Origin: Escherichia coli
GTDB lineage: Bacteria > Pseudomonadota > Gammaproteobacteria > Enterobacterales > Enterobacteriaceae
Assembly: GCF_048403405.1 (NCBI RefSeq)
Contig: NZ_CP183129.1
Strand: one strand, 5' to 3'
DNA: 64,000 nucleotides
In this document: positions 37,273 through 37,991 of the stretch, in pieces
Position numbering within the stretch: position 1 is the stretch's first letter
Layout: the number at the start of each line of letters is the position of its first letter
Notes under the pieces: model-generated
Told to the model about the DNA's origin: nothing
What the model saw: the letters and a program-made list of their open reading frames with translations, nothing else
Database searches by the model: none
Position numbers and translations under genes: made by a program

Positions 37273-37668
37273 TTACCGAGTTGCTAATTTGCAACTCGCT
37301 TTTTCGTACTTACTGATAGTGATCTCGACCTTCCCCTCCGGGATAACCGGTCCCCACTCCACCAGCATTCTTTTCACCTGACTGTCGTCTTCCCACACAC
37401 CCGCGTGGGTCAGGGCGTCAAACAGCGCCTTGTTATAGTTGTCCAGATCGCGGATCCGGTTATCCGGAGGAAACAACACGATCTCCACTGAAGCAGGTGC
37501 CGACGTTGGTTTTGGCAGACGACGTAACTGCTCAACTATTGCTGCACACGCCGCGCTCTGGAATTTTCGCCCCGCCGCGCTTATCAGGCTCTTACCAGCA
37601 AACGCCCCTTTGTTGGGGTGTCGCCAGTACGTGTTCACGCTGGTCGGAAAAGGCAGGATCAGCTTCAT
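37273..37668 (-). CDS. rusA: RusA-family Holliday-junction resolvase
   Basis: 131 aa. ...PFPTSVNTYWRH...RDLDNYNKALFDALTHAGVWEDDSQV... carries the RusA catalytic Asp motif. Confidence 0.85.
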   Translation of the reverse strand: MKLILPFPTSVNTYWRHPNKGAFAGKSLISAAGRKFQSAACAAIVEQLRRLPKPTSAPASVEIVLFPPDNRIRDLDNYNKALFDALTHAGVWEDDSQVKRMLVEWGPVIPEGKVEITISKYEKASCKLATR

Positions 37669-37991
37669 ACTTTCAGGCCCCTCTCATGTAACCAGTGGGC
37701 TGCACGCAGCCTGGCGTTTTCCTCACCGGCAAGCAGTGAGCGGATAATCCCGACCGCCTCGCTGTCGTCGTCCTTCACCACGGTATGAAGCGTGATCCCC
37801 CGGGCCACACCACGCTTTATCGTGATGACGCCTTTTTTCTCCAGTGCGCGAAGATGCTCCACCGCTGCATTCACTGAACGGTATCCCAGCATGGTTGCCA
37901 CCTCCTGATTGGTTGGCGGGAAGCCACGTTCTTTCTGATAAGAAATCAGCATATCCAGCACCTGCTGCTGGCATTGAGTTAAAGTCGTCAT
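37665..37991 (-). CDS. LexA N-terminal DNA-binding-domain protein lacking the S24 peptidase domain
   Basis: 108 aa. [63 protein letters not shown] parallels the LexA N-terminal wHTH. There is no Ser/Lys protease part. Confidence 0.75.
   Translation of the reverse strand: [108 protein letters not shown]

Follow-up and report, generated by a model that had tools for sequence, protein, structure and literature searches.

What might a phage gain from the DNA-reading part of LexA when the protease part that makes LexA cleavable is left out? The question is raised by a gene at 37665-37991 on the minus strand of a 64,000-nucleotide (nt) stretch of Escherichia coli DNA (contig NZ_CP183129.1; hereafter the window), which belongs to a lambdoid prophage and which we call LexN. 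Its product of 108 amino acids (aa) joins a LexA-type winged helix-turn-helix (HTH) to a conserved helical tail and has no protease domain. The reading that we put forward tentatively, judging it slightly short of an even chance, is that LexN is a RecA-insensitive LexA mimic, which dimerises by way of its tail, is made from the early lytic operon and acts on LexA-type boxes once LexA itself has been cleaved.

In this scheme the protein would consist of two modules, the winged HTH (residues 1-69) and, behind a flexible linker, a helical hairpin (residues 76-104) serving dimerisation. The gene would be transcribed together with the delayed-early rightward genes and translated in coupling with its neighbours, and this position and coupling imply that the protein should appear only after loss of the prophage repressor or on infection. 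Since there is neither a protease domain nor a conserved cleavage site, RecA* should be unable to inactivate it. When host LexA is cleaved, LexN would take over LexA-type sites of host chromosome and phage alike, and their occupancy would reset LexA-controlled transcription during lytic growth, the candidate sites on the phage being those at 1042-1089 and 37208-37227. The use of the tail for dimerisation, the DNA specificity, the direction of the regulation and its targets are all things that we infer. The more specific proposal, that LexN is an uncleavable stand-in for LexA on canonical SOS boxes and switches the host SOS regulon off again in the course of lytic growth, appears doubtful to us.

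The DNA-reading domain and the helical tail

The gene and its parts are as follows.

37665-37991, minus strand: LexN, the LexA-like gene; open reading frame (ORF) of 108 aa with an ATG start, PF01726, phrog_362, ratio of nonsynonymous to synonymous substitution rates (dN/dS) about 0.2
37785-37991, minus strand: codons 1-69, winged HTH of the LexA type (recognition helix 39-52, wing 53-69)
37767-37784, minus strand: codons 70-75, flexible and poorly conserved linker (predicted local distance difference test score, pLDDT, below 50 at 71-75; 1-29% identity between lineages)
37680-37766, minus strand: codons 76-104, two-helix hairpin, proposed dimerisation module (helices at about 76-88 and 93-103; pLDDT about 90; includes the non-conserved A88-G89)

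The likeness of the protein to LexA is well beyond chance. The sequence quoted in the original prediction is the exact product of the ORF at 37665-37991 (minus strand, 108 aa), and its LexA-like appearance, there judged by eye, is borne out by an unambiguous Pfam match to LexA_DNA_bind (PF01726), in which residues 1-65 cover the whole model (1-65 of 65) with an E-value of 2.9e-19 and 69 bits, the gathering cut-off being 23.7 bits. BLASTP against E. coli LexA furthermore gives 39 identities in 90 positions (43%; E 9e-22), and phmmer against the LexA chains of the PDB an E-value of about 1e-15. The S24 peptidase domain (PF00717) was not found in the protein, for which Pfam gives the DNA-binding domain alone, whereas it is present in the prophage's own repressor (41895-42569). 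Against the lexA equivalog model TIGR00498 the protein scores 71 bits, with the cut-off at 110.95, and only positions 1-91 of 203 are covered; being below that cut-off and having neither the S24 Ser119/Lys156 dyad nor a conserved Ala-Gly, it falls outside LexA proper. The expectation that the product ends before any S24 autocleavage module is accordingly right as regards the catalytic Ser/Lys part, which is absent, but not as regards the Ala-Gly, since a dipeptide aligned with it (A88-G89) is present.

In PHROG the match to phrog_362 spans the full length of the protein (E 2.4e-59); this is the gene's own family, named from its domain alone. Alternative ORFs on either strand over the gene region gave no meaningful Pfam match, and the region is without a match in Rfam. 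The search for a specific LexA lineage from which the domain might stem was uninformative, the nearest matches outside the family being metagenome proteins. A role in anti-phage defence was rejected, PADLOC having given just one marginal match (18 bits). The labels attached to the gene in databases are 'LexA DNA binding domain protein' and, at NCBI, 'LexA family transcriptional regulator', with SfV orf42 entered as 'unknown'; wrong labels are propagating too, several records calling the gene 'SOS-response repressor and protease LexA' or 'Rrf2 family'. We can conclude that the gene is real, correctly identified and already domain-annotated in databases, and in the literature searched (full text) there was no functional study of this enterobacterial LexA-like family.

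E. coli LexA contacts its DNA from helix III by Ser39, Asn41, Ala42, Glu44 and Glu45 (PMC3091678). Because the alignment with LexA is ungapped over residues 1-69, the LexA numbering can be transferred to LexN, which has S39, N41, A42, V44 and E45 and is identical at four of these five contacts. Among the 106 unique proteins of the family S39, N41 and A43 are invariant, as is R64-G65-I66 of the wing, and A42 occurs in 104. Where a domain position is conserved to 95% or more (23 positions), E. coli LexA has the same residue in 21 cases, as against 15 among the 46 variable ones. Between the three lineages of a set of 216 related IMG/VR loci (80, 80 and 56 loci; lineage A being L003-L082 and lineage C L163-L218) it is the recognition helix and the wing that are best conserved (47-62% identity), the greatest drift being seen in helices 1 and 2 and in the linker (1-42%).

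The kept residues gain in weight by comparison with gp6 of Bacillus phage GIL01, the one truncated LexA homologue so far characterised, which recognises GaCACAnnTGTGaC and switches on the late promoter P3 (PMC6182141). The aligned recognition residues are S-H-K-T-A-H-R in gp6, S-P-N-A-A-E-E in LexA and S-V-N-A-A-V-E in LexN (PMC6182141), so that the retargeted type of recognition helix found in gp6, with its Lys38, is not seen here and the residues are LexA-like. This retention of the DNA contacts, in contrast to gp6, favours retention of the half-site as well, and judging from the residues LexN most likely binds CTGT-type half-sites, i.e. SOS-box-like dyads. The kept contacts likewise make it plausible that it binds SOS boxes and thereby re-represses or re-programmes LexA-controlled genes.

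The structure was modelled with AlphaFold2 from a 15-sequence family alignment (mean pLDDT 84). In the model the winged HTH has helices at 6-22, 28-35 and 40-52 and strands at 56-58 and 66-68, it fits the structure of DNA-bound E. coli LexA to about 1 Å, and the two proteins are about 50% identical over the 68 structurally aligned residues. LexN thus shares with E. coli LexA (PDB 1lea, 3jso) the full PF01726 domain, the fold to about 1 Å, S39, N41, A42 and E45 and the R-G-I of the wing. Unlike LexA it has neither the S24 Ser/Lys protease and dimerisation domain nor a conserved Ala-Gly, and Val replaces Glu44; its C-terminal hairpin of two helices has no counterpart in LexA, and it is encoded by a phage and made from the early lytic operon.

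The hairpin is the reason why the label of a protein consisting of the DNA-binding domain only, under which the gene was originally described, has to be given up. Its pattern, approximately EAxxΦΦRxLΦA, a turn, and ARxRAΦxxLxxxG, is retained at 40-50% identity in Cronobacter, Kosakonia, Enterobacter, Cedecea and Klebsiella, and A97 and L101 are invariant among the 106 family proteins. In two diverse lineages dN/dS is about 0.2 (0.19-0.20 for the domain and 0.19-0.28 for the tail), a further value, that for lineage A (E. coli), being biased by the fact that its loci were picked as best protein matches. The hairpin is thus under purifying selection and constrained as strongly as the domain. Conserved hydrophobic residues line both helices (V80, I82, I83, L86 and L87 in helix 76-88; A93, A97, V/A98, W100 and L101 in helix 93-103), and since these are more than a lone hairpin requires, we infer that two hairpins come together as a four-helix bundle. 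Structural neighbours over the full length are winged-HTH regulators that dimerise by C-terminal helices. On the strength of the model, the hairpin probably replaces the S24 domain of LexA as the dimerisation element.

A different arrangement is seen in eight metagenome proteins of about 140-350 aa (P0132, P0133, P0149, P0152, P0153, P0155, P0161 and P0165), in which two LexA_DNA_bind domains stand in tandem and S24 is missing. By their sequences they resemble pseudo-dimers of the LexA head on a single chain, which would be another way around S24 dimerisation.

Candidate SOS boxes and the search for an operator

If LexN reads CTGT-type half-sites, where might its targets be? Six perfect CTGT-N8-ACAG sites occur in the window, where 0.67 are expected, but only three of the six pass a position matrix for SOS boxes, which was built from a list of E. 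coli boxes and whose scores are approximate. The three sites and the gene behind the first two are listed here.

1042-1061 (score 22.8) and 1070-1089 (score 19.5), no strand assigned: two tandem SOS boxes upstream of the DinI homologue, candidate targets
1103-1351, plus strand: prophage DinI homologue (phrog_189), at the prophage edge by host prfC
37208-37227, no strand assigned: SOS-type box, TACTGTATTTATGAACAGTG as read on the minus strand; a perfect CTGT-N8-ACAG with a matrix score of 21.3, which falls among those of E. coli SOS boxes; candidate target

By this approximate matrix the tandem boxes score like genuine E. coli boxes, and the dinI-like gene that the phage had been said to carry does lie within the prophage, behind these two good boxes. 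The third box is found in a 150-bp (base pair) gap between rusA and the KilA-N gene (37123-37272), 46 bp past the rusA stop codon. Of the 80 close loci 15 have this gap, as do 184 E. coli genomes, and mEp460 is without it. As a dedicated operator of LexN the box was rejected in general, given that the gap occurs in 184 genomes as against 2232 with the gene and is absent from the distant lineages. The box also overlaps a possible promoter, TTGGGT-16-TACTGT, and the sequence suggests that this may be an internal promoter, under the control of host LexA, ahead of KilA-N, DUF968 and Q.

Good SOS boxes are found at varying positions in the related loci, with at least one in 48 of 80, 11 of 80 and 9 of 56 loci of the three lineages. 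Some very strong ones recur mosaically in the related lineage A prophages: about 24 lineage A loci have TACTGTTTTTACATACAGTA (score 25.8) 3-5.5 kb (kilobases) upstream of the LexA-like gene, and about 12 have TACTGTAAAAATAAACAGTG (score 22.5) 3.7-5.3 kb downstream of it, past DUF968/Q. A search for CTGT/ACAG dyads with spacings of 0-14 within 6 kb on either side of the gene in 214 loci found no consistent position in any of the three lineages, the dyad counts being dominated by shared ancestry, and a listing of inverted repeats over 34000-43000 likewise gave no operator consistent across the lineages. Since no operator thus travels with the gene, any SOS-box target must be in trans. Between the S24 repressor and Cro-like genes, at 41801-41837, there is a 14-nt inverted repeat, TCATACAATATGTA / TACATATTACATGA; it is probably the immunity operator and unrelated to SOS boxes.

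Several observations weigh against a LexA mimic acting on SOS boxes. Glu44 has been lost throughout the family, position 44 being always A, T or V and never acidic among the 106 proteins, position 45 is E, D or A, and these changes may mean that specificity or affinity differs from that of LexA. A different dimerisation module could furthermore impose another spacing or orientation of the half-sites, by analogy with gp6. The box at 37208-37227 accompanies about 8% of the E. coli copies of the gene and has no counterpart nearby in the distant lineages, and across the related loci there is no consistent SOS-like box travelling with the gene. The LexA-like protein is also less conserved between lineages (44-49% identity) than RusA (69-75%), DUF968 (about 65%) or Dam (78%), and it is unexpected for the mimic of an invariant host factor to diverge faster than its neighbours, the divergence being located outside the DNA-reading parts. 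Finally, neither binding nor expression data for any member of the family turned up in the literature searched.

The alternative that best survives these considerations, though we still think it unlikely, is a phage-specific transcription factor of the gp6 type, in which a captured LexA domain has been retargeted to a private operator and would there activate or repress a phage promoter, e.g. to time Q or late genes or the KilA-N and DUF968 genes. Such use of a LexA head is proven for gp6 and is thus a precedent for S24-less phage LexA heads acting as functional regulators (PMC6182141). The systematic loss of Glu44 would be in keeping with it, as would a divergence faster than that of the neighbouring genes, which is frequent in regulators that bear specificity, and the new dimerisation module could alter the geometry of the site. 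On the other hand the very contact residues that are changed in gp6 are kept in LexN, where they form the most conserved part of the family, and no dyad recurs within 6 kb on either side of the gene in the three lineages. The gp6 motif is likewise not enriched in the window, with one match (at two mismatches) against 2.3 expected.

As for the relation of the two proteins, gp6 is also phage-encoded, S24-less, a PF01726 protein (51.6 bits) and the product of an early gene. It is however only 66 aa long and has no tail, whereas LexN has 108 aa and a tail, and its phage is a tectivirus of Gram-positive bacteria, whereas LexN is found in a lambdoid siphovirus. BLASTP gives no alignment between them up to an E-value of 100, and the 35% identity in a MAFFT alignment falls on generic positions of the domain. 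The absence of significant BLASTP similarity means that at most an independent capture of the LexA head can be envisaged.

Operon neighbourhood and linkage to rusA

The prophage extends over about 1000-48900 beside host prfC, with its integrase gene at 47603-48826. Its S24 repressor gene (41895-42569) is on the plus strand and the early genes diverge from it on the minus strand, in the order Cro/YdaS-like, CII, Ash, a small ORF, a replication protein (HTH_36/DnaD_N), PerC/YfdN, Dam, LexN, RusA, KilA-N, DUF968 (HNH) and Q. No terminator-like site was detected on the minus strand in the scanned interval 36900-39300. With the gene placed between replication genes and Q, in the equivalent of ninR, and no terminator on its strand there, its description as a member of an early-right operon is fair. 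Within 37277-37298, at the 3' end of rusA, there is an almost perfect palindrome of 22 bp, CGAGTTGCTAATTTGCAACTCG, which scores as a terminator only on the plus, non-coding strand. The immediate neighbours and the junctions with them are these.

37988-38674 (listed ORF), minus strand: Dam-family N6-adenine methyltransferase, upstream neighbour (PF05869, E 1.4e-45)
37988-37991, minus strand: ATGA overlap of the Dam-like stop and the LexN start, seen in the sequence
37665-37668, minus strand: ATGA overlap of the LexN stop and the rusA start, seen in the sequence; the same 4-nt overlap occurs in 195 of 215 related loci
37273-37668, minus strand: RusA Holliday-junction resolvase, downstream neighbour (PF05866)

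The methylase and the resolvase are thus as originally named, and translational coupling by way of ATGA is substantiated in that both overlaps are present and recur across the family. The annotated Dam homologue has 654 nt, which puts its start near 38641. Directly upstream of Dam, in the same coupled operon, is the gene of a PerC/YfdN-family regulator (38641-39129), and where a locus has no Dam it is usually this gene that precedes the LexA-like gene; PerC-family proteins are activators of virulence genes in pathogenic E. coli. The Dam-family methylase matches phrog_33262 and is mislabelled 'phosphoadenosine phosphosulfate reductase' in RefSeq phage records.

The gene is common. A search of 5426 complete E. 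coli genomes found it at 2854 places in 2232 of them (about 41%), and in 2222 of these carriers at least 80% of it is covered. At the DNA level it is present in 51 sequenced phages and at the protein level in 61 matching phage records, 50 of which have proteins that are 95-100% identical. The carriers include SfV (orf42), SfII, SfIV, cdtI, mEp460 (gp46), Ayreon, 1720a-02 and Shiga-toxin phages of the Stx2a, Stx2c and Stx2k types; in the 'bully phage' paper on 1720a-02 the effect described is ascribed to Cro. Length, start and coupling are conserved across genera of the Enterobacteriaceae, and a sequence resembling a Shine-Dalgarno site precedes the gene in 188 of the 212 loci scored.

Among the related loci rusA lies directly downstream in 215 of 216, and the ATGA overlap with it is kept in 195 of these 215, in all three lineages. 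The upstream junction is mostly an overlap of 4 nt or 1 nt, regardless of which gene precedes. Other neighbours are optional: the numbers of loci that have them in the three lineages are 55 of 80, none of 80 and 45 of 56 for Dam, and 77 of 80, 7 of 80 and 3 of 56 for KilA-N. In 17 loci of a Cronobacter type, all of lineage C, an extra 650-770 bp between the LexA-like gene and rusA, apparently an inserted gene, breaks the ATGA overlap.

This linkage is what a further explanation builds on, according to which LexN is not a transcription factor at all but an accessory or architectural DNA binder that works with RusA or in phage recombination or replication, in the manner of NinH. The constancy of the rusA junction while Dam and KilA-N vary fits such a partnership, as does the near equality of the counts in E. 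coli, where the same RusA allele is found at 2972 places in 2297 genomes. The RusA proteins of DLP12 and phage 82, however, presumably act without a LexA-like partner. A 4-nt overlap that leaves no room for recombination can moreover also yield tight linkage, and the residues conserved in the family are the sequence-specific major-groove readers of LexA, which speaks neither for junction binding nor for non-specific binding. As to genomic position NinH offers a precedent, but NinH itself shows no preference for branched DNA (PMC7166090). Altogether we consider this explanation improbable.

Strongly disfavoured is the view that a lexA or S24 repressor gene was captured and is now decaying without a function of its own. 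The alignment with LexA does end right after the hinge and its Ala-Gly, as would be the case after a truncation, and many truncated or fused variants occur in assemblies. Decay is nevertheless hard to reconcile with a dN/dS of about 0.2 over domain and tail in two diverse lineages, with the nearly complete coverage of the gene in the E. coli carriers, with the conservation of length, start, Shine-Dalgarno-like sequence and coupling across genera, and with a tail that is conserved, confidently folded and absent from LexA.

There remains the dipeptide at 88-89. Both BLASTP and HMMER align A88-G89-E90 through the hinge with A84-G85-E86 of LexA. At position 88 Ala is found in just 7 of the family's 106 unique proteins and is less common than Ser, Glu or Asn; at position 89 N or K takes the place of Gly in several close relatives, and in relatives at 40-50% identity the pair reads ER, TR, DD, AC, AE or AD. 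Furthermore A88-G89 lies inside a confidently predicted helix, as against the extended strand required by the S24 active site. Being neither conserved nor predicted to be extended, A88-G89 was rejected as a working cleavage site. The notion that LexN is a decoy or substrate in the RecA*/S24 system, cut in trans at A88-G89 by LexA or a prophage S24 repressor or else competing for RecA*, is the least probable of all, since the Ala-Gly, although found in most E. coli copies and aligned with that of LexA, varies in close and distant relatives alike and is predicted with high confidence to be helical, and since the C-terminal domain of LexA, and with it any part to contact RecA*, is wholly absent.

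Relation to known phage proteins and possible significance

Where does this leave LexN among known proteins? It is best classed with the phage-encoded truncated LexA homologues, from which the helical tail and the strict coupling to rusA distinguish it. The conserved tail, the kept contact residues, the strict rusA coupling and the lack of a linked operator are what the present analysis adds. Among characterised proteins gp6 is one close analogue, and in design and genomic position NinH of the lambda ninR region is the other. NinH has a DNA-binding domain homologous to that of host Fis and a different C-terminal dimerisation region, and yet it has kept a host-like site preference (PMC7166090), which lends the mimic reading a precedent. 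It occupies the same niche, a small early gene in the interval between replication genes and Q that adjoins the gene of a Holliday-junction resolvase (PMC7166090). Having a Fis-type HTH, as opposed to the LexA-type winged HTH of LexN, NinH is an analogue and not a homologue, and its gene lies downstream of the resolvase gene, that of LexN upstream.

If LexN does act as a tail-dimerised LexA mimic on SOS boxes, it would be a second, independently evolved phage use of the LexA DNA-reading head after GIL01 gp6 and, together with lambda NinH, another imitation of a host DNA-binding regulator from the ninR region. If it binds a private phage operator instead, it would be an ordinary accessory regulator. 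Binding to SOS boxes would mean that many E. coli strains, including lysogens of Shiga-toxin phages, hold a substitute for LexA that is proof against RecA and comes into play on prophage induction. This would affect the strength and duration of the SOS response in induced cells, co-resident prophages and colicins under LexA control, and antibiotic-triggered mutagenesis. Should the host SOS regulon, as in the more specific proposal, be switched off again, the genes affected would include those of error-prone polymerases, SOS-induced toxins, colicins and the LexA-controlled antirepressors of rival prophages. Carried by about 41% of the complete E. coli genomes as well as by Stx2a, Stx2c and Stx2k phages, LexN would then be a widespread and hitherto unrecognised modifier of SOS mutagenesis, of competition between prophages and of the induction of toxin phages.

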